Shown in pieces: positions 1 through 41,699 of a stretch of 64,000 nt of DNA. The notes under the pieces are model-generated. The model saw only the letters and a list, made by a program, of their open reading frames with translations. It was not told the DNA's origin and searched no databases. A program made the translations under genes and the position numbers. Location: positions 1 through 64,000 of IMG/VR virus record IMGVR_UViG_3300031867_000031, one strand, 5' to 3'. The stretch comes from a virus. Lineage: Duplodnaviria; Caudoviricetes. The number at the start of each line of letters is the position of its first letter. The stretch's first letter is position 1.

Positions 1-230
1 CTCTAAAAATTCCCCGGGGGTAGTATTTAAGGACTTCTTTCCATACTTTTTCGCGGAGCTCTCTTTGTTTTATCCTCTCCGACTTATGTGCCTACTGCAT
101 TTTTCTCGATATTCTGCTCATCGAGGTCTCCTTTCAAGAGTCTTAGCCGATAAAAGTCTCTTAAAACTTAGAGAGTTCCACGAAGAAGTATGGGAAAACT
201 TACAAAAAGTATATTTAAATTGGAGAAAAC

Positions 231-1865: not shown

Positions 1866-3461
1866 ATGGGTTATGAAGATAATTATCTCATGCATCACGG
1901 AATTAAAGGCATGAAGTGGGGTGTTCGGCGTTTTCGCAATTACGATGGTACTCTAACTAGTGCAGGCAAAGCTCAGCGTAGAGCGCAGAGTTCTGGCGGC
2001 GGCATGTCTTCTAAGACTAAGAAGCGTCTTGCAACCGCTGCAAAAGTTGCTGGTGCTGCTGCAGCTGTTGGCGGCGCGGCATATCTTGCGAATCGCGCTA
2101 GTGGTGGACAGCTTGCTAATAATGTTAAATTTAATGCTCGATATGCTCGCGAGGTTGGTAGAGATGCCATCGACCGTGTGGCTGATACAAAAGCTGGATT
2201 AGCTGTTAGAAAAACTGCATCTACCTTACGAGATAAAGCATCCAATAGTAAAGTCGCTAACCTAGGTAGAACAGCTAAAGCACGTGCTCAGTATGCTATA
2301 GATAGTAATACTAAAATTACAGGCGCTAAACGACGTGCTGGAGAAGCACTTTCGAATGCTAGAACTCGTGTTTCTTCTGCTGCATCCAATGCTAGAGACC
2401 GAGTTTCTTCTGCTGCGTCTAATGCTAGAGACAGAGCTTCTTCTGCTGCATCTACCTTACGAGATAAAGCATCCAATAGTAAAGTCGCTAACCTAGGTAG
2501 AACAGCTAAAGCACGTGCTCAGTATGCTATAGATAGTAATACTAAAATTACAGGTGCTAAACGACGTGCTGGAGAAGCACTTTCGAATGCTAGAGATCGG
2601 CTAGCCAATGCTAGAGATCGTGTTTCTTCTGCTCCATCTAATCTGCGAAATAAACTGTCTAATCGAGCTAGCGTAGCTAAAGCACGTGCTCAGTATGCTA
2701 TAGATAGTAATACTAAAATTACAGGCGCTAAACGACGTGCTGGAGAAGCGCTTTCGAATGTTCGATCTAAAGCGTCAAAAACTTTTAACACTCTTGTTGA
2801 TAGAGGTCAGCAAGAGGTGGATAACAGAGCTGCTGCTAGAAATAGACGAAATGGGACAACTAGCTCCTTATCCAGAGCTGCTCGAGATTTGAATTCTACA
2901 GCAGATGCTCGTATTTCTAGAGCTCGTACGAATGTTAGAAATGCTGTTCGAAATGCTCCCGCTAATGCTAGAAGTGCCGCATCTAATGCTCGAGCAGCAG
3001 CAACTAACGCTATTCGAAATGCTCCAGCCAATGCTAGAAATGCTGCATCTAATGCCAGAGATCGTGTTTCTTCTGCTGCATCTGCTACTAGAAGTAGAGC
3101 TGTCAGTGGTGCCAGTTATTTACGAGACAGAGTTTCTTCTGTTGCGTCTAATGCGCGAACTCGCGCAGCCAATAGCAAACTCGTTACTAAAGCATCCAAT
3201 AGTAAACTTGCTAATCGAGCTAGAGTAGCTAAAGCACATGCTCAGTATGCTATAGATAGTAATACTAGAATTACAGGCGCTAAACGACGTGCTGGAGAAG
3301 CCGCCTCTTCTGCTAGGTCCAAGTTGAGTAATGCCGGCAGAATGGCAAGAAGTACTGCTAAGGCTGGCTATTATAGTACCGCTGGTAAGAGCAAGATACA
3401 AGAGCAGACAAGAACCGCCAAGCGTCGCGCCAATAATCGTCGTATGTATGGTAACGGTTAA
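1866..3461 (+). CDS. HHG-motif cargo protein 1, basic Ala/Arg/Ser/Asn repeat protein
   Basis: YLMHHGIKGMKWGVRRFRNYDGTLT N-terminus; internal repeats. Confidence 0.85.
   Translation: MGYEDNYLMHHGIKGMKWGVRRFRNYDGTLTSAGKAQRRAQSSGGGMSSKTKKRLATAAKVAGAAAAVGGAAYLANRASGGQLANNVKFNARYAREVGRDAIDRVADTKAGLAVRKTASTLRDKASNSKVANLGRTAKARAQYAIDSNTKITGAKRRAGEALSNARTRVSSAASNARDRVSSAASNARDRASSAASTLRDKASNSKVANLGRTAKARAQYAIDSNTKITGAKRRAGEALSNARDRLANARDRVSSAPSNLRNKLSNRASVAKARAQYAIDSNTKITGAKRRAGEALSNVRSKASKTFNTLVDRGQQEVDNRAAARNRRNGTTSSLSRAARDLNSTADARISRARTNVRNAVRNAPANARSAASNARAAATNAIRNAPANARNAASNARDRVSSAASATRSRAVSGASYLRDRVSSVASNARTRAANSKLVTKASNSKLANRARVAKAHAQYAIDSNTRITGAKRRAGEAASSARSKLSNAGRMARSTAKAGYYSTAGKSKIQEQTRTAKRRANNRRMYGNG
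2215..2594 (+). repeat. 149-bp near-perfect direct repeat (2215-2363, 2446-2594) with shorter copies near 2675-2760 and 3225-3300
   Basis: Encodes ...AKARAQYAIDSNTKITGAKRRAGEALSNAR; 231-bp offset. Confidence 0.9.
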
Positions 3462-7216: not shown

Positions 7217-9286
7217 ATGGATTACGATTTTTGTGGCTATGCCACTAAGAACGATCTGCTTTGTGCAGACGGTCGCGTAATCCGTCACGATGCCTTCAAG
7301 GAGAGTGATGGACAAATTGTGCCTCTTGTTTGGCAACATGTTCATTCTGATCCTAAAAATGTTTTGGGTCATGCGCTTCTTGAGAATCGTGATGATGGCG
7401 TGTATGCTTATGCGACGTTTAATAATACGCCGTCTGGTCAGCATGCAAAAGAGATGGTTAAACATGGTGATATTTCTGCCATGTCCATCTACGCGAATCG
7501 TCTTAAGCAATACGGTACGGATGTCGTTCATGGAATCATTCGTGAGGTAAGCCTCGTTCTTGCTGGCGCAAACCCTGGCGCATATATTGAAAACATTAGT
7601 TTTGCGCATGCTGATGGTACATACACAGATGTTGACGATGAAGCAGTCATTTATTCTGGACCAGATACTATCGACTATATTAGCCATGCAGATGAGGAGG
7701 ACGAAGTGGGAGACGATATTCTAGATCAGCTTTCTGATGAGCAGATCGATGCGATCAATCGAATTATTGATGCAGCAATTGATGGTGCAGTAGACGATCT
7801 CGATGATGAAGATGTTCTGGACGATCTTACGCCAGAGCAGCTTGAGACAATCGGCGACCTTATTGAGGATGCAGTAAGCGAAGCTCTTGAGCATGCCGAT
7901 GACGACGATGACGAGTATTACGACGATGACGACCTTGACGAAGACGACTACGATGAGGATGACTTCGACGAGGATGAAGACGAGGGCGATGACGTCCAGC
8001 ATTCGTATTATGATTACGATGAGTATTATGATTATGATATTCAGCATGCTGATGACGATCCTACTGTCGAGGATGTCTGGAATACTCTCAACGAAGAGCA
8101 AAAGAATTTAGTATATTTTCTGATTGGCCAGGCTAACGAGGATAATGTGGCCGAGCATAGCGCAATCTATGATGGAGGTTTTGACATGAAGCACAACGTT
8201 TTCGACGATGCGTACTATGACGACGAGGATGTTCTTACTCACGATGAGTTCGATGCTATTATGGCGGATGCCTATAATGCGAACTCTCTTCGCGATGTCT
8301 TCCTCGCACATGGTATCACCAATCTTGATGTTCTGTTCCCGGAGGCCAAGCTTGTTACCCCGACTCCTGAGATGATTTCTCGTGATATGGGCTGGGTTGA
8401 TCAGCTTTGGAATGCTATTAAACGCACTCCTTTCGCGCGTATTAAGTCTACTGCTGCTAACATTACCGCTCCTGAGGCTCGTGCAAGGGGTTATGTTAAG
8501 GGTAATCTGAAGGCCGAGGAGGTCATTGTTCTTCTTTCCCGTGAGACTTCCCCGCAGACGGTGTATAAGAAGCAAAAGCTTGATCGCGATGACGTTATCG
8601 ATATTACTGATATTGATGTCATTGCGTGGATGAAGCAGGAAATGCGCGTCATGCTTAATGAGGAGATTTGCCGCGCTATTCTTGTTAGTGATGGCCGTGG
8701 TAGCACGCATGCTGATAAGATTAAGGAAGATAAGATTCGTCCTATTTATCAGGATACTGATGTCTACACTATCCATTACGAGATCACGTATGGCGCCAAT
8801 GATACTGAGGATCAGAAGGCTAGTAAGATTGCTGATGCCGCAGTCCGCGCTCGTAAGGATTACAAGGGTTCCGGTACTCCGTGGCTCTTTGCTTCTAACG
8901 AGGTTATCTCTGATATGATGCTTGCGAAGGACACCATTGGCCGTCGTCTCTATAAGGACGAGGACGAGCTTAAGGCTGCTCTTCGCGTTTCCAAGATTGT
9001 CGAGTGCCCGATTCTCGAGAATGTTACTCGTAATCGTGCCGCTGATGCTACTGCTGGTATTACTGCTGCTACGATGGATCTTAAGGCTCTTATCTTCAAC
9101 CCGATTGATTATACGGTTGGTGCCGATAAGGGTGGCGCGGTTTCGCTCTTTGACGACTTCGATATCGACTACAACCAGATGAAGTATCTGATTGAGACTC
9201 GTATCTCGGGCGCGCTCACTAAGCCGTATAGTGCTATTGCTCTCGAGGTTGAGCATCCTGCTACGACTGGTGGTAATGAGGGTTAA
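7217..9286 (+). CDS. Prohead protease-acidic scaffold-major capsid fusion protein
   Basis: N-terminal HK97-type protease (PLVWQH, MSIYA, EVSLVLAGANP), Asp-rich linker, capsid domain from about GITNLDVLFPEAK. Confidence 0.88.
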   Translation: MDYDFCGYATKNDLLCADGRVIRHDAFKESDGQIVPLVWQHVHSDPKNVLGHALLENRDDGVYAYATFNNTPSGQHAKEMVKHGDISAMSIYANRLKQYGTDVVHGIIREVSLVLAGANPGAYIENISFAHADGTYTDVDDEAVIYSGPDTIDYISHADEEDEVGDDILDQLSDEQIDAINRIIDAAIDGAVDDLDDEDVLDDLTPEQLETIGDLIEDAVSEALEHADDDDDEYYDDDDLDEDDYDEDDFDEDEDEGDDVQHSYYDYDEYYDYDIQHADDDPTVEDVWNTLNEEQKNLVYFLIGQANEDNVAEHSAIYDGGFDMKHNVFDDAYYDDEDVLTHDEFDAIMADAYNANSLRDVFLAHGITNLDVLFPEAKLVTPTPEMISRDMGWVDQLWNAIKRTPFARIKSTAANITAPEARARGYVKGNLKAEEVIVLLSRETSPQTVYKKQKLDRDDVIDITDIDVIAWMKQEMRVMLNEEICRAILVSDGRGSTHADKIKEDKIRPIYQDTDVYTIHYEITYGANDTEDQKASKIADAAVRARKDYKGSGTPWLFASNEVISDMMLAKDTIGRRLYKDEDELKAALRVSKIVECPILENVTRNRAADATAGITAATMDLKALIFNPIDYTVGADKGGAVSLFDDFDIDYNQMKYLIETRISGALTKPYSAIALEVEHPATTGGNEG

Positions 9287-21133: not shown

Positions 21134-24100
21134 ATGTTGAAATCAGAAGCCGCCGCTTATTTAGCCGGCGTAACTCAGACTGAGGGGGCGGAGGCTTCTG
21201 CTCCTACGAATCTTCACGTGATTACTGGTGAAGTGGGTGAAGCGTCTGCAGACGGCAAAACCCTTGTTAAAATTGATGGCCTCATGTTCTCCGAGAGTGA
21301 TGACCAATTTATTGAGGTTGATGCTCTCGGAGGACTTGAGGAAGGCGATATTGCAACTATTGTTCTGACTGGCGAGCAGGGGCATGCAATGACCCCGCTT
21401 GCTCTTGGTTCGATTGGCTCTGTAGACCGCATTACTGTTCGAATCGCTGCAATTGAGGCTGACTATATTAAAGTTGAGCAACTCGATGCGGCGAAGGCTC
21501 GAATTGGAGAGCTTGAGGCCGACCACGTGTCTGTCGACGACTTTAATGCCGCTACTGGTCGAATCGGCACTCTTGAAACCACTCGAGCTACCATCACAGA
21601 CCTCGAGGCGGCTAAGGCTAGAATTGGAACTCTTGAGGCTGACCATGTCTCTACTGATGACTTGAGCGCGGCTACTGCTAGAATCGGCACGCTTGAGACA
21701 AATACGGCTGACATCGGCACCATTCGCGCCAATTCTGCTAAGGTTCAGAACCTCACGGCTGCTGAGCTCGAGGCGGACCACGCTACTGTCGGGTCGTTGA
21801 GTACCACTTATGCGACTATTGCAAATCTAAATGCCGCAAATGGCCGAATCACGAATCTCGAATCGACCAAGGCCAACATCTCGGACCTTGAGGCCGATTA
21901 CATTACGGCAGACGAGATTGAGGCCACCTACATGCACGCTAACATGTCGAACAGCGACGTGGCGTGGATTGAGAATGGTACCATCAAGAACGGCGCGATT
22001 GTTAGTGCCATGATTAACGATGTCAGCGCAAATAAGCTGACGGCGGGCACTATCAATGGTTCGGTCATCAACGTTACGAACCTCAATGCCGATAACATCA
22101 CGACTGGCACCATCAATGGACAGCGCATCGGTGAGGGTTCGCTCAGTCTTTCAAAATTGGAAGATGATGTCTACACCGAATCTGAAGTTGATGCTAAGTT
22201 AGCAACAATGCAGTCTGAGATTGATGGCGCTATTGAGACTTGGACTGGAACCGCTGTACCTACGCTGAACAACTCTCCTGCGAGTAACTGGACGACTGCT
22301 GCGGTTAGGGATACGCACGTCGGCGACGTATATTTTGTTGTGAATTCTCAGTCGCAGCAGAATGGTTACAACTACCGATTCACAAAGAGTGGTAGTACAT
22401 ATTCTTGGCAGCTAATCAAGGACAGCGACGTAACCAATGCCTTGCAGAGACTTGAGACAGCTGAGGGCAAGATCACTACCTTCGACAGCGATATTTCCAC
22501 ACTCAAGACCGATACGGGCTCGTTAACTACAAGAACCACCAACCTTGAGACCCGCATGTCTGACGCAGAGGATGATATTCTCGATAAGGTTGATACGACG
22601 ACCTTCAACGAGGTCAGCGACACAGTAGACCAGCATTCGCAGACTATCTCTCAGCACACCACGGCAATCGCCAACAAGGCGGATAGTTCAACAGTCACCG
22701 CCGTTACGAACCGCGTCAGCAAGAATGAGCAGGACATCTCTGGCATTAACACCACCATCGGTGAGCTGCAAGAGACGGTCGAGAGCAAGGCAGACGGGTC
22801 GACTGTAACCACCATCAGCAACAAACTCAACACCGTGAGTGACACGGTTGACGGCCACACGCAGACCCTCACTAGCGTCCAGAACACTCTGAGCACCAAG
22901 GCAGACAGCTCCACCGTCAGTACCCTCACCACGAAGGTGAACAACGTCTCCGACACGGTTGATGGTCATACCTCGCAACTCTCAAGCATCACTACCACTC
23001 AGACCACGATGCAGGGCACCCTCGACAAGACGGTTAAATCCAGCATCCAGCTCTGGTACTCCAAGGCCAACACGACCGCGCCGAGCAAGCCTACTTCTCA
23101 GGTTACGAGCACTAGTACGTCTGGCAACGCTTGGCGAATCGTGGTGCCCGCCTACAACTCAAGCTACCCTCACTACTACTATTGCTGGCAGTATGAGTAT
23201 GCGGATGGTACCTATGGCTGGTCCGCGGTCGTGCGCGACATCGCCATGGGAGAGAGCCAGTCCACCGCTAGGACGGCTGATTCCAACGCATCCGCTGCGG
23301 TCACCACAGCCAACACCGCGAACGCTAACGCATCGACGGCCCTGTCCACGGCCAACACTGCCAATACCAACGCGTCGGACGCGAAGACCGCGGCAACCAC
23401 CGCTAGCACGACCGCATCCGAGGCCAAGACCACTGCGGAGACGGCGGCAAGCGACGCAAGCACGGCAAAGACCAACGCGGCGTCTGCCGTGAGCACGGCC
23501 AACTCCGCGAGCACCACGGCCACCAACGCCCAGAGCACGGCGAACGCCAACATCAAATCCAGCGTGCAGCTCTGGTTCACGAAGGCGAACAGCACGGCAC
23601 CGAGCAAGCCAACGTCGGTCGTCAGCACCAGCAACGCGAACACGGCGAACGCTTGGAACCTCGTGGTGCCAGTCTGGAACAGTGGCTACCCGCACTACTT
23701 CTACTGCTACCAGCAGCAGAAGGGCGATGGCAACTACCAGTGGACCGACGTCGTATACGACCGCGCCACCTCAGAGGCCCAGCAGCTCGCAAACACGACC
23801 AGCACGAGCCTCAGCACGCTACAGACGAACTACGCCACGTTCAAACAGACTACCGAGCAGTTCGAGTCAACGGTAGGCTCTAGGCTCACGACAATCGAGA
23901 GCGACATTGACGGTGTTGAGGAACGAGTCTCCGACAACGAGACCTCAATCTCCAACAACGCCTCGGCCATCGCCCTCAAGGCCAACTCCTCAGACGTTTA
24001 CACGAAGAGCACTGTTGACGGCAAGATTACGCAGGAGGTCACAGACCGCGACGCCGCAATCACCGCGAAGGCCAATGAGATTACCTCCACCGTCTCACAG

Positions 24101-27100
24101 AACTACACCACCAAGGACGAGTTTAATAACCTCGAGATTGGCGGGAGGAACTTCATACTTCGCTCCGGAGACTTCTACAGGTGGAACGGAACGACATCGA
24201 GTGAAGTGACTCTTGTTAATGAGGACGGTGGAACCTACGCAACCATAACACCGCCATCTGTTTCATGGTCAAACATATCTGGCTCCGCGCATCGTCCGAT
24301 TGAACTCTTGAACGGAAAGACCGTCACAATTTCCTGTGACGTTCGTGGGCATAACGTCCCAAGTAGCGCAGTTTCCAGCTTCTACCTGAACATTCATGGC
24401 TATGCCAACCAGACCACGGCAAGCAGAATCGGAACCATTGATTCTTGGTTTTTATCCTCTGTTCTGAAGGAAAACGAATGGGTGCGAATTAGCAAGACCT
24501 TAACGTTCGATGATGATGCACGAAAATCGTTTAGCCAGATTCCATCGGGATACACATACGAGAGCATCACGCACTTTGACGTTGCACTCTACAATCATGG
24601 CGGGTTCCCCATCGACTACCGTCACCCGCAGTTGGAATACGGCAACAAGGCCACTGAATGGACTCCCGCACCGGAGGACATCGAGACTCGCATATCATCG
24701 GCAGAGTCAAGCATCACCCAGAATGCCCAGAACATCGAACTCAAGGTGTCCAAGGACGGGGTAATCAGCTCAATCAACCAGAGTGCTGAGACGGTCAAGA
24801 TTCAGGCGTCGAAGGTCGAAATTAACGGCACTGCGATATTCTCAGCGATTAAGTCTAGTGCTGACGCCGCTTATGATGCCAAGGGTGCGGCCGCGACGGT
24901 TCAGGACAACTTAGACAATCTTGAGGTTGGTGGGAGGAATTTGCTGCCACAGACCCAGAATTGGGGCAAAGTTTCTACCAGTAATGGAACCGGAACTATC
25001 ACTAGCGATATGAAAGCTGGTTGCCAAATCTTAAAGTTCGTTTGGGGTTCAGGTAGTGCTGATGTGTTCTTTACCGGGAAATGGACTAGACCATTAGAAG
25101 CAAACGCATGGTATACACTTTCCTTTTGGGCAAGAGCGGACGCAGCAATCGACCTACGCAATTATTTATGGTCCCCAGCTGTTGTAGATGAGGGACGAAA
25201 TTCTGTCGGAAGAACAACATCATCTTCTGACGGAGCAATATTAACGCCAATCACGACGTCATGGGAACGCTATTGGATTGCATGGCACGTCAAAGCGGGA
25301 TCCTCTTTACCAAACAATGTTATGATTGGTAGATTGCTGTCGGCCGGAACCGTATACTTTGCTGGTGCAAAGTTTGAAAAGGGCAACAAAGCTACTGATT
25401 GGACTCCTGCACCAGAGGACCAAACAGCTTATGTTGATGACTCCATTTCATCGATTCAGGTCGGCAGTAGGAACCTGCTGAGATTGACTCAAAATCCCCA
25501 AGTGTCATCAACTGCGTGGTCTTACACGGCGGTGCCGATGAGCATTAATGGGTGGACGAAGTATGCTAACGCAGTAACTTTGGAGCGCAAAGATAACGGT
25601 ATAAAGGCAACTCACAATACTTCAAGCACTAGCGACGGTTTTGCTGTACCACTTGTCGCGTACAATGCCGTAACAGGCGGAGAGAGTCTTTCCGTTTCAT
25701 TCGAGTATCGAACCAACATGACCTCAATCGGAACGCCATATCTTCTTGCAACAACTAACGAAGGTGGTACCACTGGCAATACCTCTCTTGGCCATAGCGT
25801 TTCAGTAACAAAGTCCGAAACCGAGTGGGCTAAGTTCAGTGCTGTTTGGACATTCCCCACAGCAACAAATAAGGTCTATGCATTTCTTCTTCTGACTTAT
25901 GTAGCAACATCAGGTGGATGGATAGAGATTAAAGACGGCACGCTCAAGCTCGAAAAGGGCAACAAAGCTACCGACTGGACGCCCGCACCAGAAGACATCG
26001 ATGCTTCCATCGAAACAGCCTCTGGCAACGGCTTCTACGTCAAGTGGGACGACAACCAGGGAACCACATATGCTGGTGGTGAGGCAAGGTTCTACGCCTA
26101 CGACCCCGTCATGAAGACCAAGGGCACGGGTGCGGGCTGGGTTCTGTGGAACGGAGTCAAGCGCACGGTCCCGAGCGCCACGGTCAACCCGAACAGCGCA
26201 TATCCGTATAACATTCCCATCTATCTCGTGCTCAGGCTGTCAAGCGCTACGTCCACGACGGGCACCATCTATGCGGTCTGGTACAACGGCGGATGGAAGT
26301 CGGCCAATCCAGACGCGGCTACGAGCAGTGCCATCTCCGACTGGACGTGGGTAGAAGCGACTGATATCGTTCTTGCATCCTGTGTTGAGCCTTCGTCCGA
26401 GGCGCAGTTCACGGATTGCCAGACGTATGACCCGCCGCTGCTCTGTACGCAGGTGACCACCATCACGACGACGGCGGCATCCGCTCAGGCATTGGCGACC
26501 ACGGCAAACACCACCGCCAACGCGGCTGCGCCCAAGGCAAGCGCGGTCAAGCGCACCCAGCGCATCTGGTATCGCTCGAACAGCGCCACGGCTCCGGCTA
26601 CGCCTGGTACGGCATCCTCGAACTGGGTGACCAAGCCAGATGATGGTAACGCCGCGTGGACCAAGATGCACGTCGCCATCAGCAGCACGCACAAGTATAT
26701 CTACACGTGTGAGCAGTACGAGATGGCTAATGGCACGGTGGGATATACGTCCGTCCTGCTGGACAACACCATTACGGTAATCGACGGTGGAAACATTATC
26801 ACGGGTACCGTCACAGCGAATAAGCTCAATGCAGCTAACATCAATGCTAGCAAGACTTTGACCGTGGGCGCGATGACAGACGCAGCTGCCAGCACGATTC
26901 TGAATAGCAACATGGTAGTGGGCGGAAGAAACCTGCTTCTTGCGACGGGTACTCCGCAATCAAAGACCATGCCTGCAATAGCTGCTGGAAGCTATACTAC
27001 TTGGGATCCGTACAAGCTTGTTGGCGCATACAATACGTTAGGGTTGTCCGCTGGTGACAGCATAACAATCTCATTCGATTGGAGCGTTACTGGCGCAGCG

Positions 27101-28384
27101 GCGAACTCTACCCTCAAGATAGGAACAAACGTTGATCCTTGGGAATATTTCGGTGTTCTTGTAACCTTTGCGGCTGGAGCTTCGAGCGGGCATGTGAAGA
27201 AGACCTATACAGTTAGTTCAAAGTTGGCGTCGTGTGCTGGAACGACACTTCGCGCAAGAATTGATGCCGTTGGAACGGCAATCACGACTTCGATGGTGTT
27301 AACATTGTCCAACGTGAAACTCGAAAAGGGTAATAAGGCCACCGATTGGACTCCTGCTCCGGAGGACCAGACAGAATATGTCGATTCGATTACCTATCAG
27401 TCGGCCCGGCCGAACCTGAGCCCTTTTTTCACAATGCCACTTAATGATATCTACTCAAGCAATAATGCGAATGGATATTGGGACAACAACAAATCGATGA
27501 CTGGTTCTGGGGCGATCGTTCTTGAACAACTATCGGATGGATGGGCACATTATAATTATAATAACACCGGAACGAATATGGTATGGCTTACTATATATGA
27601 AATTGGTTCATGGCGTCATCTTGCAGGTGACTTGAAGGGTAATACAAAGTATACAGTCCTGATGGAATTTCGTAACGTCACTAAGAGTGGAAACGTGACC
27701 TGCATTGGCACCACGCAACATGCAACATCATGGCCTTCGATGTTTGTGGGAAACAGTAGTCTCGGAAACGTTGCTGTCGCTAATGGTTCTCAGTACCATG
27801 TCGGAACGACAATCGCCGATCCTTCGTCGGTCGCTAATTCGACACATTGTACAACCCGTACGCTTATTGCGATACCGCCTGGGGCTTCTATAACTTGTGA
27901 TCTCCGCGTGTCTCTTTATGAGGGCGAATATACCGGTCCATACAAGTCGTATTCTGGCGATATGCTATATGCCACTAATTCGGCATTGGAAGGCACCAAC
28001 GAATCGCTGGAAGGCGCCATCACTGACATTGGCGAGCTTTCGGACCAGCTTGTCGACACCACGACGGAGCAGAACAAGACCATTACCACCATCCAGACGT
28101 ATCTTAACTCATTAAGACAGGACCTTGACGCCGAGATTGAATCTCGCCAGAAGTGGCTCAATTTCGACACGGCTGAGGGTCTGATAATCGGAGCAAAAAA
28201 CAGCACGTTCAAGACAGTCACGACTAACACCTCGCAGCAGTTTAAAAACGGTGGCACAGTTCTAGCAGAGACGAGCGGCATGGAGTTCGTGGCACCTGTC
28301 ATGCGCTCCGATCAGATTCTCATAGGCAACTGGATGTGGACTAGGCGAGACAATGGAAACCTGTCCCTCAAGTGGATTGGATAG
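21134..28384 (+). CDS. Large tail fibre / host-specificity protein
   Basis: 2416 aa, coiled-coil heptads, four GxRNL(L/I)...GNKAT(D/E)WTPAPED modules, C-terminal NGNLSLKWIG. Confidence 0.85.
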   Translation: MLKSEAAAYLAGVTQTEGAEASAPTNLHVITGEVGEASADGKTLVKIDGLMFSESDDQFIEVDALGGLEEGDIATIVLTGEQGHAMTPLALGSIGSVDRITVRIAAIEADYIKVEQLDAAKARIGELEADHVSVDDFNAATGRIGTLETTRATITDLEAAKARIGTLEADHVSTDDLSAATARIGTLETNTADIGTIRANSAKVQNLTAAELEADHATVGSLSTTYATIANLNAANGRITNLESTKANISDLEADYITADEIEATYMHANMSNSDVAWIENGTIKNGAIVSAMINDVSANKLTAGTINGSVINVTNLNADNITTGTINGQRIGEGSLSLSKLEDDVYTESEVDAKLATMQSEIDGAIETWTGTAVPTLNNSPASNWTTAAVRDTHVGDVYFVVNSQSQQNGYNYRFTKSGSTYSWQLIKDSDVTNALQRLETAEGKITTFDSDISTLKTDTGSLTTRTTNLETRMSDAEDDILDKVDTTTFNEVSDTVDQHSQTISQHTTAIANKADSSTVTAVTNRVSKNEQDISGINTTIGELQETVESKADGSTVTTISNKLNTVSDTVDGHTQTLTSVQNTLSTKADSSTVSTLTTKVNNVSDTVDGHTSQLSSITTTQTTMQGTLDKTVKSSIQLWYSKANTTAPSKPTSQVTSTSTSGNAWRIVVPAYNSSYPHYYYCWQYEYADGTYGWSAVVRDIAMGESQSTARTADSNASAAVTTANTANANASTALSTANTANTNASDAKTAATTASTTASEAKTTAETAASDASTAKTNAASAVSTANSASTTATNAQSTANANIKSSVQLWFTKANSTAPSKPTSVVSTSNANTANAWNLVVPVWNSGYPHYFYCYQQQKGDGNYQWTDVVYDRATSEAQQLANTTSTSLSTLQTNYATFKQTTEQFESTVGSRLTTIESDIDGVEERVSDNETSISNNASAIALKANSSDVYTKSTVDGKITQEVTDRDAAITAKANEITSTVSQNYTTKDEFNNLEIGGRNFILRSGDFYRWNGTTSSEVTLVNEDGGTYATITPPSVSWSNISGSAHRPIELLNGKTVTISCDVRGHNVPSSAVSSFYLNIHGYANQTTASRIGTIDSWFLSSVLKENEWVRISKTLTFDDDARKSFSQIPSGYTYESITHFDVALYNHGGFPIDYRHPQLEYGNKATEWTPAPEDIETRISSAESSITQNAQNIELKVSKDGVISSINQSAETVKIQASKVEINGTAIFSAIKSSADAAYDAKGAAATVQDNLDNLEVGGRNLLPQTQNWGKVSTSNGTGTITSDMKAGCQILKFVWGSGSADVFFTGKWTRPLEANAWYTLSFWARADAAIDLRNYLWSPAVVDEGRNSVGRTTSSSDGAILTPITTSWERYWIAWHVKAGSSLPNNVMIGRLLSAGTVYFAGAKFEKGNKATDWTPAPEDQTAYVDDSISSIQVGSRNLLRLTQNPQVSSTAWSYTAVPMSINGWTKYANAVTLERKDNGIKATHNTSSTSDGFAVPLVAYNAVTGGESLSVSFEYRTNMTSIGTPYLLATTNEGGTTGNTSLGHSVSVTKSETEWAKFSAVWTFPTATNKVYAFLLLTYVATSGGWIEIKDGTLKLEKGNKATDWTPAPEDIDASIETASGNGFYVKWDDNQGTTYAGGEARFYAYDPVMKTKGTGAGWVLWNGVKRTVPSATVNPNSAYPYNIPIYLVLRLSSATSTTGTIYAVWYNGGWKSANPDAATSSAISDWTWVEATDIVLASCVEPSSEAQFTDCQTYDPPLLCTQVTTITTTAASAQALATTANTTANAAAPKASAVKRTQRIWYRSNSATAPATPGTASSNWVTKPDDGNAAWTKMHVAISSTHKYIYTCEQYEMANGTVGYTSVLLDNTITVIDGGNIITGTVTANKLNAANINASKTLTVGAMTDAAASTILNSNMVVGGRNLLLATGTPQSKTMPAIAAGSYTTWDPYKLVGAYNTLGLSAGDSITISFDWSVTGAAANSTLKIGTNVDPWEYFGVLVTFAAGASSGHVKKTYTVSSKLASCAGTTLRARIDAVGTAITTSMVLTLSNVKLEKGNKATDWTPAPEDQTEYVDSITYQSARPNLSPFFTMPLNDIYSSNNANGYWDNNKSMTGSGAIVLEQLSDGWAHYNYNNTGTNMVWLTIYEIGSWRHLAGDLKGNTKYTVLMEFRNVTKSGNVTCIGTTQHATSWPSMFVGNSSLGNVAVANGSQYHVGTTIADPSSVANSTHCTTRTLIAIPPGASITCDLRVSLYEGEYTGPYKSYSGDMLYATNSALEGTNESLEGAITDIGELSDQLVDTTTEQNKTITTIQTYLNSLRQDLDAEIESRQKWLNFDTAEGLIIGAKNSTFKTVTTNTSQQFKNGGTVLAETSGMEFVAPVMRSDQILIGNWMWTRRDNGNLSLKWIG

Positions 28385-30134: not shown

Positions 30135-30746
30135 TTGGAAACACTAATCCGTAAGGTCATGATGCCAGATGGTGTGGTCCGTAACGAGCACCGTATTACC
30201 TGCATCACAAGCCGAATTGACCAAGATACGGTTATTGATGTCGAGAGTTCCGGCGAAAACGTGTCAGGCTATATTACCAAACTTATCATTTCTCCTTATG
30301 AGGGTATTTTAACCGAGGAGCAGGCCTTTGATATTTTAAAAAATGATCCGTTATTCTTAGAGTGGATCGACCCGGTTCAGGATGCTCTCGATGAGTTGCT
30401 CCCAATCCTAACCGACGAGCAGGCCGAGATGGTTACCAACATGTACCCCGAGTGGGCTGTTGATATTTCCTACACGGCCGGTGAGCGTATTCAGTATAAC
30501 TCGAAGCTTTACCGTTGCGTGCAGGCGCATACCTCGCAGGAGGGTTGGGAGCCGCCTATTACTCCTGCTCTGTGGACTCGTACGGCACCGGAGGGTGATA
30601 TTCCAGAATGGATTCAGCCGACTGGCGCTCAGGACGCATATAACAAGGGTGACAAGGTAAAGCATAACGATTCGACTTGGATTTCAGACGTCGATGCGAA
30701 TGTCTGGGAACCCGGTATCTATGGATGGACGGCTAGCAATGAGTAA
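30135..30746 (+). CDS. CBM5/12-like carbohydrate-binding protein
   Basis: MYPEW...YTAGERIQYNSKLYRCVQAHTSQEGWEP..TPALW; TTG start after GGAGG. Confidence 0.7.
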   Translation: METLIRKVMMPDGVVRNEHRITCITSRIDQDTVIDVESSGENVSGYITKLIISPYEGILTEEQAFDILKNDPLFLEWIDPVQDALDELLPILTDEQAEMVTNMYPEWAVDISYTAGERIQYNSKLYRCVQAHTSQEGWEPPITPALWTRTAPEGDIPEWIQPTGAQDAYNKGDKVKHNDSTWISDVDANVWEPGIYGWTASNE

Positions 30747-31428
30747 TTCTCGTGATGCAATTGTGGCATATTGCCGCAGGAACCTTGGCTGTTCTTATAG
30801 CTATACTCCGTCTGGCGGTGTTGAAGGACGATCCTATAATTGTTCCTACCTAAGCACTTGCGCATACAAGGCTGCTGGTCTGACCATTCCTGGTTGGCAG
30901 GGTCATCAAAATGGTGATGGTTCACAGTCAGATTGGGTTTATCGCAACGGCCATTGGACCACTGATAAATCCAAACTAAAGCCGGGCGATTTGGTCTTCT
31001 TTGGAACAAGTCGCACTAATACCGGTCATGTTGGAGTGGTTAGCAGGTCAGGCACAGTTCCTTATATTATCGACAGCACGCCAAGTCGAGGAGTAGCAGA
31101 GCGTCTGCTCCCCACTGGTGCAGGCTTTGTTGGAGGAGGATGGCCGCTTGCTAATCTTCCTGCGGACAGTACAAAAACGGAGGGATTCACTGTGAATAAG
31201 ACAGTTACCGTTCGTAGCGATTTTCTGCGAGTCCGAGATGCCCCTTCTATTAAGACGGGCAAAGTCGTCATGAGTGGTGGCAAAGAGGTTCACTATGCTA
31301 AGGGCGATACCGTAACGATTGATTCTATCATAATCGGAGACGATGGTTATGCATGGGGGCACTACATCGGAGCTTCTAGTAAGAAAGACCGATACATTGC
31401 ATTAGGAATCCTCGAAAACGCTCGATAA
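30739..31428 (+). CDS. Endolysin, NlpC/P60 catalytic domain plus SH3-like cell-wall-binding domain
   Basis: YNCSYL (Cys), LKPGDLVFF, GHVGVV (His); C-terminal LRVRDAPS...GYAWGHY. Confidence 0.85.
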   Translation: MSNSRDAIVAYCRRNLGCSYSYTPSGGVEGRSYNCSYLSTCAYKAAGLTIPGWQGHQNGDGSQSDWVYRNGHWTTDKSKLKPGDLVFFGTSRTNTGHVGVVSRSGTVPYIIDSTPSRGVAERLLPTGAGFVGGGWPLANLPADSTKTEGFTVNKTVTVRSDFLRVRDAPSIKTGKVVMSGGKEVHYAKGDTVTIDSIIIGDDGYAWGHYIGASSKKDRYIALGILENAR

Positions 31429-33665: not shown

Positions 33666-33764
33666 AGACGCAGCAATTAATTTATGTAGAATAATAGGCA
33701 TTATAATAGCTGTATGCTGTTTTGGATTAATACTATACAACGACTATTAATAAAATTCAAAATG

Positions 33765-33820
33765 GAACCCAAAGTTCTATAAATTTTATTATGGAGCTTT
33801 GGGTTTCTCTTTTATTTTTA
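33765..33820 (+). terminator. Intrinsic terminator
   Basis: AACCCAAAGTTC...GAGCTTTGGGTT hairpin followed by T-tract. Confidence 0.7.
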
Positions 33821-33884: not shown

Positions 33885-34091
33885 ATGATTCTTAGTAACA
33901 AATATTATGATCTTCTTAAGTGGATTGCACTTATTGTTCTTCCCGCTCTCGGTACTTTATATTTTGGGCTTGCCAGGATTTGGGGACTCCCGTTCGGTGA
34001 GGAAATTGTTGGTACTATTACCGTTATCGATACGTTTCTTGGCGCGCTTCTTGGCGTTAGTACTAATAATTATTATAAGCAGAATGAGTAA
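33885..34091 (+). CDS. Holin (Dp-1-like family)
   Basis: LSNKYYDLLKWIALIVLPALGTLY...WGLP...IVGTIT..DTFLGALLGVS; two TMs. Confidence 0.85.
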   Translation: MILSNKYYDLLKWIALIVLPALGTLYFGLARIWGLPFGEEIVGTITVIDTFLGALLGVSTNNYYKQNE

Positions 34092-34112: not shown

Positions 34113-35111
34113 ATGGAGTATTTACCCTCCTATAAGGATGATTTATATTTAGCTCACCATGGTATTCTTGGCCAAAAGTGGGGTGTTAGACGATTTCAAA
34201 ACTCAGATGGTTCTTTAACCCGTGCTGGCAGAGCTCGATACGGCAATTCAGAAAATAGTACTAAATCCAATAACAAACTTAAAACTGCTGCAAAAGTTGC
34301 TGGCGCGGCTACGGCTGTTGGTTTAGCCGGAATGGGTGCGTACGCAATATCTAAGAGTGGCATGCCGGTTGGCGGAGTACATAATATTTCTGAATTGCGT
34401 AAACCTGGTTTACCAATTTTAACTCAACGTGACAGTTCCATGGCTACTGCTGCTATAAAAGTTAACCCGAATGCCAAAAGCGGAAATGATGCATATTTGT
34501 TTAATTGTACTCATTGCTCAGTTGCATATGATCTTCGTAGACGAGGTTATGATGTTGAAGCTGGACCAGGCCATGTGCATCTAGAGCGTTTTATGCGAAA
34601 AGCATATGCTGGAGCAGAATACCATACTATTCCGGGTATAAGTTCTGGTGGAGGAGCTGCGGCTAAAGATAGAGAGCTTAGTATTAAAAATCTTCGTACT
34701 AATCTACGAATGCAAAAACAAGCTCAAAAACAAGCCATCGATGATCCCCAAGGTTTTGCTAGAGATCAAAGACGGATGACTGACAATATTCTTAAACAAT
34801 GTGAGGATATGGGTCCTGGAGCTAGAGGAGCTATTAATCTTACTCTTGCTAACGGTATGGGTCATTGTATTGCTTTTGAATGCGACGAAAAAGGTCAGGC
34901 GCATCTTATTGATTCGCAGCTAATTGCTACAACTACTGGAATACTTGGAATGGGTGGTGCGCATGGCACCAGAGGTTCCTCATATGTTGATGATTTTATA
35001 GCTAAAAGCATACTTCCATGTATGCCAGTTAGTGTAACGCGGTATGATAATGCAGAACCGAACATTGAGTTTTTAAAGAAGAAACGAATAGTAGTACCAA
35101 GTGAAGGTTAG
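34113..35111 (+). CDS. HHG-motif cargo protein 3 with papain-fold (Tox-PL-like) toxin domain
   Basis: LAHHGILGQKWGVRR N-terminus; NCTHC..AYDLRRRGYDVEA, GHCIAFE, LIDSQ catalytic-triad pattern. Confidence 0.75.
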   Translation: MEYLPSYKDDLYLAHHGILGQKWGVRRFQNSDGSLTRAGRARYGNSENSTKSNNKLKTAAKVAGAATAVGLAGMGAYAISKSGMPVGGVHNISELRKPGLPILTQRDSSMATAAIKVNPNAKSGNDAYLFNCTHCSVAYDLRRRGYDVEAGPGHVHLERFMRKAYAGAEYHTIPGISSGGGAAAKDRELSIKNLRTNLRMQKQAQKQAIDDPQGFARDQRRMTDNILKQCEDMGPGARGAINLTLANGMGHCIAFECDEKGQAHLIDSQLIATTTGILGMGGAHGTRGSSYVDDFIAKSILPCMPVSVTRYDNAEPNIEFLKKKRIVVPSEG

Positions 35112-35125
35112 TGAGGTGAATATTA

Positions 35126-35368
35126 ATGTCTCCGGATCGTGCGATAAAAATTGCTGAAAATAAATTGCATATGGTCTGTACTGGTTTTGGATATGAATAC
35201 GAAGGCGATTACTATTTAGAAATGGCTCCACAGAATTATAATCCGAACAAAGATGGTGCAATTTCTGATTCTTGTTATAAAGTTGATTCTGTTACGGCAA
35301 AAGTGACGCCATATAGTCCGGCGGTAAATGGTATACAAGATATTAGAAAGATGCACTTTTTTAATTAA
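35126..35368 (+). CDS. Putative immunity protein
   Basis: 80-aa gene directly after the toxin-like ORF; A..IA...L helix followed by beta strands; lacks HHG motif. Confidence 0.5.
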   Translation: MSPDRAIKIAENKLHMVCTGFGYEYEGDYYLEMAPQNYNPNKDGAISDSCYKVDSVTAKVTPYSPAVNGIQDIRKMHFFN

Positions 35369-37102: not shown

Positions 37103-37396
37103 ATGAGTGATTTATACGGCGAAATGACTGATGAAAAGTTTAATAAACTTGCTACTACTACCATTGCTAATTGGTGGAATAATCAGGATGAACTTGTTGA
37201 CATATTCGGTTCAATTTCTCCAGATGAAGTGTATACTACATGGAAATGTAAAGCTATTGAGAATTTTAAAGGTTTATTCGGTGTTCCCCGCGATGGTGAT
37301 GGTTTATATTTCGAGTTTACATTCCATGGTAAGAAAAACTGCTGTTATCTCGACGTTTATAAAAAGCAAACTCAAATAATTGTCGATCTTAATTAA
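37103..37396 (+). CDS. DUF6275-like phage protein
   Basis: VYTTWKCKAIENFKGL...YFEFTFHG...YLDVYKK pattern (recognised from memory). Confidence 0.55.
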   Translation: MSDLYGEMTDEKFNKLATTTIANWWNNQDELVDIFGSISPDEVYTTWKCKAIENFKGLFGVPRDGDGLYFEFTFHGKKNCCYLDVYKKQTQIIVDLN

Positions 37397-37898: not shown

Positions 37899-37909
37899 AA
37901 AACTCTAGA

Positions 37910-37950
37910 GGTGGTTAGTCGAAAGATTAACCACCTTTTCTTTTTTTTTC
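37910..37950 (+). terminator. Intrinsic terminator
   Basis: GGTGGTTAGTC-GAAA-GATTAACCACC then T-tract. Confidence 0.85.
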
Positions 37951-39123: not shown

Positions 39124-39849
39124 GTGGAACACCTACCATCATTTATAGATGATCTTCATGTTGATATTAAGCCGTCATTTATTGCGCATTCATTTAGAGA
39201 TGAACATGATGCTAAAATGATGTATGGGTTGCCTAAGGTAAAGAAATTTCCTATGCCTGACGCAAAGCATGTACGATCTGCTATTAGGTTTTTTAATTAC
39301 GCTAAACCATCTCAAGAACAAGAGTTAGCTAATGCTATTCTAGCTCGAATGGATGATTATGGTATCGACCCCGATGATATTAATGTCGGTGATGATAATC
39401 GTTTTAAGAAATATTTACAGCATTCATATTTAGCGCATCATGGCATTAAAGGAATGCATTGGGGTGTGAGAAGGTATGAAAATTATGACGGCACTCTAAC
39501 CGCTGCCGGTAAAAAACGTTATGAAGGATTAGATCGCAAAAGTCAAAAAGCTAAAAAGAAATATTTAAAAATGATGGATAAAGATATGGAAAATCATTTT
39601 TACAATCAGTTAAGTCCGAATGCTAGAAAAGTTTCTGCAATTGGGCGCAATGGACGTGAGATACTTGGACAAGCTTGGGGAGAAGCGTATCGAAAAGGAT
39701 ACGTAACCGATAAAGATCATGCACAAATTAAGAAAGCAGCTAAAGAGACTCGTTCATATATGTCCAAAAAGTATGGCGATTCTGCAATGAAAGCTTTTAC
39801 AAGATCTGGAGTACTTTTTAGAAAAATTGATGATTTTGATACGTTATAG
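39124..39849 (+). CDS. HHG-motif cargo protein 7 (internal motif, extra N-terminal domain)
   Basis: FIAHS...KKFPMPDAKHVRSAIRFF...YLQHSYLAHHGIKGMHWGVRR. Confidence 0.85.
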   Translation: MEHLPSFIDDLHVDIKPSFIAHSFRDEHDAKMMYGLPKVKKFPMPDAKHVRSAIRFFNYAKPSQEQELANAILARMDDYGIDPDDINVGDDNRFKKYLQHSYLAHHGIKGMHWGVRRYENYDGTLTAAGKKRYEGLDRKSQKAKKKYLKMMDKDMENHFYNQLSPNARKVSAIGRNGREILGQAWGEAYRKGYVTDKDHAQIKKAAKETRSYMSKKYGDSAMKAFTRSGVLFRKIDDFDTL

Positions 39850-41071: not shown

Positions 41072-41699
41072 ATGGAGTATCTTCCGACTTTTATTGATCA
41101 ATTAGATGTAGATTATATTTCACATCATGGAATTAAAGGAATGCATTGGGGGTATAAGAAGGTATCAGAATGCTGATGGTTCTTTGACACCTGCTGGAAG
41201 AAAACGGTATGACGAAACAACAAAGCTTATGCGACGTGCTGATTCTTATGAATCTGCTGCTAAACATTTAAATTCGCAAATACATCCTAACAAAAGTAGG
41301 ATAGAACGCGCTAGAATAATGACTCAAGCTGTAAAAGCACAACAAAAAGCGGATCGTATACGCTCAAGATTAGACCCCGATATTGTTTCTAAAATTGAAC
41401 AGGATAGAAAAATTGAATTGAAGAAAAAGCAAGCGGCAAAAGAAAAAGAATGGCATAATAGTCCATCTAGCAGAAGATATCGTTTTATGGATGACGCAAT
41501 GCATGAAGTATTTGGAGCAAATACCAAAAGTGATTATAGGAATCTATATAGAGAAATGAGTAAGGACAAACGTTTTAAAAATTTATTAGATTCTGAAGAT
41601 AATGATGATTACAAAGAAGCAGAAGCGGCTTGGCTTAAAAAGCATGGGTATTGGGAATCATATTTAGATGCTATACATAATGGTTATAAAGACATATAA
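41072..41699 (+). pseudogene. HHG-motif cargo protein 8, frameshifted in a G5 run
   Basis: MEYLPTFIDQLDVDYISHHGIKGMHWG then extra G in 41148-41152; GIRRYQNADGSLTPAG continues in another frame. Confidence 0.75.

Follow-up and report, generated by a model that had tools for sequence, protein, structure and literature searches.

The window analysed here comprises the first 64 kb of an 82,331-bp IMG/VR virus record (IMGVR_UViG_3300031867_000031), which is judged to be 99% complete. At positions 34113 to 35368 it holds a two-gene module: a gene for a protein of 332 amino acids (aa), which begins with a short peptide of the Pfam family DUF7211 (here called the tag), and directly behind it an untagged gene for a protein of 80 aa. 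The C-terminal domain of the 332-aa protein is, as judged by profile, catalytic signature and predicted fold, a toxin-type papain-fold Cys-His-Asp enzyme of the Tox-PL1 family, and the 80-aa gene is a dedicated, conserved partner of this enzyme. The reading of the module that we favour is that the tagged Tox-PL1 protein would be an effector, silenced by its partner in the cell in which it is made, packed into the capsid and injected into the next host, where it would modify a host protein. Taken as a whole, this reading appears moderately probable. The parts of the two genes are located as follows.

34113-35111, + strand: gene for the tagged Tox-PL1 protein, 332 aa; open reading frame (ORF) with an ATG start and the Shine-Dalgarno sequence GGGAGG 6 nt upstream; Pfam DUF7211 and Gln_amidase matches
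34140-34193, + strand: DUF7211 tag, residues 10-27, with the conserved motif continuing to about residue 45; profile match
34284-34352, + strand: Ala/Gly-rich hydrophobic helix, residues 58-80; Kyte-Doolittle maximum 1.41 for the 19-residue window 62-80
34425-35108, + strand: papain-fold catalytic domain as modelled, residues 105-332; AlphaFold2 (AF2) model with a predicted local distance difference test score (pLDDT) of 95 and a predicted template modelling score (pTM) of 0.91
34503-34919, + strand: Pfam Gln_amidase (Tox-PL1) match, residues 131-269; hmmscan and six-frame search
34503-34508, 34863-34865, 34911-34913 and 34917-34919, + strand: signature codons for N131-C132, H251, D267 and Q269, respectively
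35126-35368, + strand: untagged 80-aa partner gene, candidate inhibitor or immunity protein; GAGGTG ribosome-binding site, 14 bp after the stop codon of the Tox-PL1 gene

The tag, the hydrophobic helix and the sequence motifs on which an initial annotation of this DNA had relied are all present where that annotation had placed them. The tag of the 332-aa protein, of which residues 15-36 read HHGILGQKWGVRRFQNSDGSLT, scores 29.3 bits and is over the cut-off in the six-frame search, and is borderline in hmmscan (26.3 bits against a gathering threshold (GA) of 27). Distant tagged homologues of the protein have a similar hydrophobic segment. The catalytic domain matches Gln_amidase (PF15644, “Papain fold toxin 1”) with 30.5 bits against a GA of 24.1 and an E value of 8e-7 in hmmscan, and with 32.4 bits in the six-frame search; 67 of the 73 nearest representatives match the same family. 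No match to the Phage_Mu_F domain was found in the 332-aa protein by hmmscan.

Tox-PL1 has been defined by the signature NC-H-DxQ together with a papain-like fold (Zhang et al. 2012, PMC3482391). In the 332-aa protein this signature is intact: it is made up by N131-C132-T-H-C135, which is followed by AYDLRRRGYDV (138-148), by G250-H251-CIAFE256 and by LID267-S-Q269. Among 85 distinct phage relatives, N131 and C132 are conserved in all 85, H251 and Q269 in 84 each, and D267 in 81 (with Glu in a further three); N131 and C132 are also invariant among 12 near relatives and 73 cluster representatives, and among the latter the H and D-x-Q residues, too, vary little or not at all. Further conserved are a block [DE]-L-R-R-R-G-Y-D-V behind the Cys helix and an R310-x-D312 pair near the C-terminus. 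Because Gln_amidase is matched above its cut-off and the signature is nearly invariant in the 85 relatives, the motifs are not a chance resemblance.

The fold was predicted with AF2 for residues 105-332, using an alignment of 73 sequences. In the model, about 45 residues form a helical insert that separates the Cys helix from the His strand. When the model was compared with 48,161 representatives of the PDB (VIA-align), nearly all rows with a Z score greater than 5 were papain-fold proteins, three of them above 8. The top neighbours were Salmonella SpvD (Z 11.6; root-mean-square deviation 2.6 over 144 residues), YopQ (9.6), Shigella OspI (8.1), itself a glutamine deamidase, and Pseudomonas AvrPphB (7.4). 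A Foldseek search of the PDB returned nothing at E <= 0.001 for the enzyme or the partner model; for the enzyme, the papain-fold theme was seen again at E values of 0.02 and above. In BFVD, a library of viral structures, there were 11 significant matches, all to phage proteins, several of which had been named automatically as “Papain fold toxin 1” (E 1e-10), while others were annotated as capsid maturation protease, MuF-like fusion, minor capsid protein or capsid morphogenesis protein. Thus, the papain-like fold expected in the initial annotation for about residues 110-332, and with it the assignment to the Tox-PL papain-fold toxins, is borne out by profile, signature and predicted fold. As to chemistry, the enzyme would be either a peptidase or a glutamine deamidase, two activities between which the sequence cannot tell.

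The second gene of the module lies 14 bp behind the first and encodes an untagged product, as the initial annotation had said, and a terminator scan found no terminator-like site between the two. The 80-aa protein has no Pfam or PHROG match. A word-indexed protein search recovered eight relatives of it, and in every contig examined these are preceded by the Tox-PL1 gene. In two phages whose Tox-PL1 protein is 27-28% identical to that of the window, and lies beside the terminase large subunit gene rather than the holin gene, a homologue of the small partner occupies the same position; the two small proteins match the 80-aa protein with a BLASTP E value of 3e-5 and are 41% identical to each other.

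The adjacency of partner and enzyme was quantified in 80 viral contigs, fetched via the toxin domain from 389 that encode a relative. All + strand ORFs were called, a profile of the small protein was iterated, and the partner family was thus recovered through the Tox-PL1 loci. Behind 76 of the 82 assessable distinct phage Tox-PL1 ORFs, an ORF of 55-130 aa follows within -35 to +40 nt, and a member of the partner family is directly adjacent to 70 of the 82, with a median overlap of 4 nt. Sorted by the carrier of the enzyme, this is the case for 38/39 loci with the DUF7211 tag, 7/9 with MuF and 24/33 with another or no recognised N-terminal part. As controls, genes with the tag only had such a neighbour in none of 90 cases, and other genes of at least 150 aa in 2/307. 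Since the profile had been built on the same viral loci, it was tested on 80 independently fetched contigs from bacterial genomes, where 28 of 29 matches to the partner family adjoin a Tox-PL1 ORF (controls 0/295). Only 28 of the 82 bacterial Tox-PL1 genes have a neighbour from the partner family, in agreement with other immunity families being used in bacteria. The enzyme and its partner are therefore co-inherited in related phages. In some phages (L029:3875-5485, L043:1963-4771 and L087:3791-7146), two Tox-PL1 genes stand in tandem, and behind each of them lies a separate small ORF.

Imm35 has been reported to be “specifically associated only with” Tox-PL1 and was proposed to be a peptidase inhibitor (Zhang et al. 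2012, PMC3482391). The relation of the partner family to Imm35 was examined with an alignment of 18 relatives built from Escherichia coli YrhB and relatives carrying PF15567 according to a precomputed table. Comparison of the two alignments with hhalign gave a probability of 94.9% (E 4e-8) over 64 columns, which is nearly the whole small protein; in 60 controls with shuffled columns the probability did not exceed 1.6%, and with the reversed alignment it was 0.2%. The Pfam model of Imm35 itself (PF15567) had no match at E values up to 1 in the 80-aa protein or in 51 family members, which is why the protein is not filed as an Imm35 member. Judged by alignment, it is best regarded as a member of a phage-borne sister family of Imm35/YrhB, related by remote homology and lying outside the Pfam model. 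In a language-model atlas, the nearest named clusters were Imm-NTF2-2, Imm35 (0.77) and PepSY, scores that serve as leads only. The partner-family profile gave chance matches only (cadherins, sialidases) among PDB sequences.

The AF2 model of the 80-aa protein (pLDDT 92) has an N-terminal helix packed on four strands. Its best structural matches contain PepSY domains, namely CD1622 (Z 5.9), YpmB (5.2) and the C-terminal domain of YpeB (5.1), Z scores in a range (5.1-5.9) that supports only a common arrangement. They are followed by a designed cystatin fold, a BLIP-like protein and protease propeptides. Several of the proteins with this PepSY or cystatin fold are peptidase inhibitors or propeptides, matched at modest Z. 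PepSY (PF03413) was also found below threshold in 6 of the 51 family members, with a best E value of 0.023. The immunity-like nature that the initial annotation gave to the gene therefore stands as far as conserved adjacency and a distant relation to Imm35 are concerned; as to function, the partner is probably an inhibitor of the enzyme.

From these observations, the following course of events can be proposed. The gene at 34113-35111 would encode a modular effector consisting of the DUF7211 peptide, the Ala/Gly-rich helix and the C-terminal Tox-PL1 enzyme, and the 80-aa gene, 14 bp downstream, would be co-transcribed with it. In the virion-producing cell, the partner would bind and silence the enzyme. 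The tagged enzyme would enter the capsid, as is thought for MuF-Tox-PL1 fusions, and the untagged inhibitor would be left behind in the producer cell. The free enzyme would then reach the next host together with the DNA and modify a host protein there; the initial annotation's suggestion of host defence proteins or competing phages as targets is speculative. Inhibition by binding, packaging driven by the tag, ejection and the target are the steps that we infer.

DUF7211 (PF23847) is represented in Pfam by a model of 25 residues, and a literature search on DUF7211, PF23847 or the motif found nothing relevant. There are nine copies in this genome, on otherwise unrelated proteins: seven are intact in the window, one is broken (41072) and one, which has diverged, lies just beyond the window. 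In addition to the Tox-PL1 gene, the intact copies are found in the following paralogues.

1866-3461, + strand: 531-aa tagged paralogue, located ahead of the terminase gene; DUF7211 40.3 bits
3468-3947, + strand: 159-aa tagged paralogue, followed directly by the gene for the terminase large subunit; DUF7211 36 bits
35372-36022, + strand: tagged paralogue, 216 aa; DUF7211 33.5 bits
36030-37091, + strand: tagged paralogue, 353 aa, with hydrophobic helices (hydrophobicity maximum 1.60); DUF7211 45.6 bits
37911-38624, + strand: tagged paralogue, 237 aa as listed, with the tag at residues 38-56; DUF7211 38.5 bits
39124-39849, + strand: tagged paralogue with an internal tag (residues 101-119) behind a weak DUF6582-like N-terminal part

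The partner gene had been called the only untagged gene between three tagged ones. This is so within the first four genes of its block and fails beyond them, because untagged small genes follow tagged ones at 37103, 37434 and 38661. The first of these (37103-37396) encodes a 97-aa DUF6275 protein and lies behind the 353-aa tagged gene, with counterparts in close relatives at L009:8989-9282, L010:4008-4301 and L013:8207-8500; in relatives, the tagged gene in front of the DUF6275 gene may encode 620-630 aa. By synteny among close relatives, the DUF6275 gene and the preceding tagged gene may be a second effector-partner pair.

Some further features of the tagged genes can be described. Those at 34113, 37983, 39124 and 41072 have a common second leader before the tag, ME[YH][LI]P[ST][FY].D.L, which is also found in the close homologues of the Tox-PL1 protein (MEYKPSF/Y). 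In the gene that looks broken (41072-41699), MEYLPTFIDQLDVDYISHHGIKGMHWGYKKVSEC meets a stop after 34 codons, and the reading goes on in another frame as a 190-aa ORF (41127-41699); the gene could be a pseudogene with a frameshift, undergo a programmed shift or be affected by a sequencing error. Just past the window, at positions 64527-65684 of the genome (contig L105:1028-2185), is a GNAT acetyltransferase with the diverged tag SHHGIKGQQWGVRNGPP (16.7-20.7 bits).

Beyond this genome, DUF7211 was found in 105 cultured phage records. In cultured relatives, genes with the tag lie between those for terminase and portal (Ingrid g8-12, ReqiPepy6 gp015-019, Secretariat gp14-17). The tag is internal or repeated in ReqiPepy6 gp013, in orf7 of Lactococcus phage 1706, in Secretariat gp15 and in three proteins of 1000-1375 aa that end in Tox-PL1. 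These three giant proteins (1004-1375 aa; L038:1481-4495, L040:362-4489 and L078:470-4501) combine three or four copies of DUF7211 with a Tox-PL1 domain at the C-terminus, and each is followed by the partner gene. Their tags look like the boundaries of polyprotein modules.

All genes of the window lie on the + strand. The left arm has, in this order, the two DUF7211 genes at 1866 and 3468, the terminase large subunit gene (3962) and the portal gene (5755); further downstream are tail genes, including a candidate for the tape measure of 1864 aa and, downstream of that candidate, a 2416-aa ORF (21134-28384). Three other genes bear on the role of the module.

7217-9286, + strand: S78 prohead protease fused to the major capsid protein; Pfam Peptidase_S78, phrog_3270
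30694-31428, + strand: NlpC/P60-type lysin candidate
33885-34091, + strand: holin-like gene, directly upstream of the Tox-PL1 gene and the first gene after the terminator-like site 33764-33807

The fusion of the S78 protease to the capsid protein is the hallmark of a lineage of phages that carry DUF7211 (244 related phage records). A supercluster of phages with this fusion has been described that includes actinobacteriophages of Arthrobacter, Gordonia, Streptomyces and Rhodococcus, the 1706-like phages of Lactococcus and the Faecalibacterium phage FP_oengus (preprint 10.1101/842583), and the phage of the window is placed in it because of its own fusion. The phage is from the bovine gut: near-identical DNA is contained in bovine gut metagenomes of three studies, one of which may be its source. 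A blastn search of the locus against cultured phages gave a sole match, of 57 nt, inside the tag. The syntenic counterpart of the holin-like gene in two relative contigs (L009 and L013) matches Pfam Phage_holin_Dp1. Two strong terminator-like hairpins, at 33764-33807 (19 pairs) and 37907-37938 (14 pairs), bracket a block that consists of the holin-like gene, the Tox-PL1 gene, its partner, two tagged genes, the DUF6275 gene and a gene for 154 aa, which suggests a single transcription unit.

Evidence that bears on delivery in the virion comes from the carriers to which the enzyme is attached. Phage Tox-PL1 domains, with the partner, are also joined to MuF, portal-MuF and VG15 modules. In one viral contig (L081:1142-4564), a single ORF of 1140 aa comprises portal, MuF and Tox-PL1, and the partner gene starts at its stop codon. 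The MuF protein gp7 of phage SPP1 is bound to the portal inside the capsid (PMC5576092). The DUF7211 proteins orf7 of Lactococcus phage 1706 and gp019 of ReqiPepy6 are each labelled “structural protein” in the annotation of their records. In the Gordonia phage Secretariat, gp15 combines the tag, in two copies, with a GNAT domain and, at its C-terminus, a Tox-PL1 domain (23.7 bits; Foldseek E 5e-6), and gp16 is aligned to the small partner family by hhalign with a probability of 98.1%. Capsid loading is the most economical reading because of the head-associated carriers, the gene position between terminase and portal and the structural annotations (as record labels), and delivery of the tagged Tox-PL1 protein in the virion is what we infer from these.

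A wider proposal would make DUF7211 a signal for capsid loading and ejection and thus the basis of a MuF-independent polymorphic effector-delivery system in the large phage lineage of Gram-positive hosts that has the protease-capsid fusion: enzymes such as Tox-PL1, GNAT acetyltransferases and LigT-like phosphoesterases would be packed, untagged inhibitors excluded, and the enzyme turned on only upon injection. This is a tentative idea, and we regard it as somewhat doubtful.

Several points weigh against the effector reading. There is no direct evidence of any DUF7211-tagged Tox-PL1 protein in virions, and the Tox-PL1 gene in this phage lies behind lysis genes, outside the head module. Through its hydrophobic helix, the protein could be held in the membrane of the producer cell, with the catalytic domain outside and away from a cytoplasmic inhibitor. 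The 80-aa protein has no Pfam Imm35 match and its structural matches are weak (Z <=5.9), and we know of no Tox-PL1/Imm35 pair that has been characterised biochemically. Lastly, no tyrosine integrase gene was found in the 99%-complete record, in which serine recombinases were not searched for; should the phage be lytic, an immunity gene may not have its usual purpose, the protection of a lysogen.

Tox-PL1 could instead act on the tagged proteins themselves, as a processing peptidase that cuts them at the tag or close to it, either while the head is assembled or once they have been ejected, with the partner as a detachable pro-peptide that times its activity; we consider this unlikely. A role of this kind was proposed for MuF-Tox-PL1 by Zhang et al. 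2012 (PMC3482391), similar genes of cultured phages are annotated “capsid maturation protease”, and the fold of the partner resembles PepSY propeptide domains. The architecture of the proteins of 1000-1375 aa, with a single Tox-PL1 domain at the C-terminus behind three or four DUF7211 copies, and that of Secretariat gp15 are also consistent with it. However, against the 105 cultured phage records with the tag, the Tox-PL1 protein matches a single record by tblastn, which is itself untagged, and the fold search adds only Secretariat. As tag-bearing cultured phages almost never have Tox-PL1, the tag is independent of the enzyme. Moreover, tagged multi-module proteins without Tox-PL1 exist (ReqiPepy6 gp013, 1706 orf7 and, in the window, the gene at 39124), and every member of the lineage has, fused to its capsid protein, the S78 prohead protease, the natural candidate for the trimming of packaged proteins. 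A general tag-processing protease was rejected on these grounds, i.e., the rarity of the domain among tag-bearing cultured phages, all of which have the S78 protease. Within the multi-tag polyproteins, Tox-PL1 may have a self-processing role.

The position of the gene behind a holin-like gene, in a block bounded by terminator-like sites, would also suit a late intracellular enzyme that is not packaged and is anchored in the membrane, where it would modify a host or phage protein (for takeover, lysis timing or exclusion) under regulation by the 80-aa protein; DUF7211 would then serve some other purpose, for example to bind the membrane or a binding partner. The hydrophobic helix agrees with this. 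We hold it to be improbable, to about the same degree as the processing role, given that the pair of distant relatives lies beside terminase and portal, that the catalytic domain is fused elsewhere to MuF or portal-MuF head proteins, and that two DUF7211 proteins are annotated as structural, albeit by record labels only.

The order of the two genes, toxin and then immunity gene, is that of an interbacterial polymorphic toxin, which would be released by lysis or carried on the particle to kill competitors while the partner protects lysogens. This would match the model put forward for highly toxic MuF polymorphic toxins of temperate phages (PMC5576092), and Tox-PL1 relatives are present in many bacterial genomes. 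It is nevertheless very unlikely here: a toxin with protection of lysogens is not expected where no tyrosine integrase was found in a record judged 99% complete, the related cluster AU phage Giantsbane is judged lytic (no lysogeny genes), and the 332-aa protein is without a secretion signal or receptor-binding part. Least credible of all is a cell-wall peptidase of the lysis system, i.e., a membrane-anchored NlpC/P60-like hydrolase working with the holin, which would agree with the position behind the holin-like gene, the hydrophobic helix and the presence of the pseudomurein endoisopeptidase PeiR among the fold matches (Z 7.1), but which was rejected as an NlpC/P60-type enzyme because the family matched is Gln_amidase and a separate NlpC/P60-type lysin candidate is already present at 30694-31428, and against which also stand the best fold matches, to effectors that act in the cytosol, and the place of the pair within the head module of other phages.

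The interest of the favoured reading, a packaged effector whose inhibitor stays behind, is that early-acting effectors carried by phages are known from few models (T4 Alt and the internal proteins, the N4 RNA polymerase, MuF toxins). The cassette of Tox-PL1 and an Imm35-like gene moves as a unit among at least four head-associated carriers, and the partner family is outside Pfam and PHROGs though it is very common in gut phages. As the same arrangement exists in a model that is cultured and non-pathogenic (gp15/gp16 of Gordonia phage Secretariat), packaging, inhibition and target are directly testable. If the reading is true, leaving an untagged inhibitor behind would offer viruses a simple means, of general use, to transport a dangerous enzyme safely.

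Of the known systems, the closest are the Tox-PL1/Imm35 polymorphic toxins (PMC3482391), with which the module of the window shares the catalytic family, the NC-H-DxQ signature, the C-terminal place of the enzyme in a modular protein and a small gene of immunity type, distantly related to Imm35, directly after it. It differs from them in that the N-terminal module is DUF7211 rather than WXG, SpvB, RHS or MuF, the partner escapes the Pfam Imm35 model and belongs to a mostly phage-borne family of its own, and the catalytic domain has an insert of about 45 residues. With the MuF toxins of temperate phages (Jamet et al. 2017, PMC5576092) it has in common that a phage-encoded toxin domain is borne by a head-associated carrier and that an immunity gene lies downstream, and the cassette of Tox-PL1 and partner is itself found on MuF carriers (7/9 phage loci). 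By contrast, the protein of the window has no MuF domain, its carrier is a peptide of about 25 residues on nine proteins instead of one portal-binding domain, and its phage, in which no tyrosine integrase was found, comes from a lineage with lytic phages among its members.

The nearest solved folds, SpvD, OspI and AvrPphB, have the same Cys-His-Asp site and, once injected, target one protein of the host or a few. However, they are 13-16% identical to the enzyme, enter eukaryotic cells by type III secretion, and none of them has a dedicated inhibitor gene. In phage T4, the capsid-targeting sequences of the internal proteins IPI-III and of Alt are short N-terminal peptides common to otherwise unrelated proteins that are packed and injected, and a prohead protease is present there as well. 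DUF7211, known here from sequence, differs in being longer, far more conserved and at times internal or repeated. Thus, the theme of the phage polymorphic toxin is known; what is new is the DUF7211 carrier and an unannotated branch of the immunity family.

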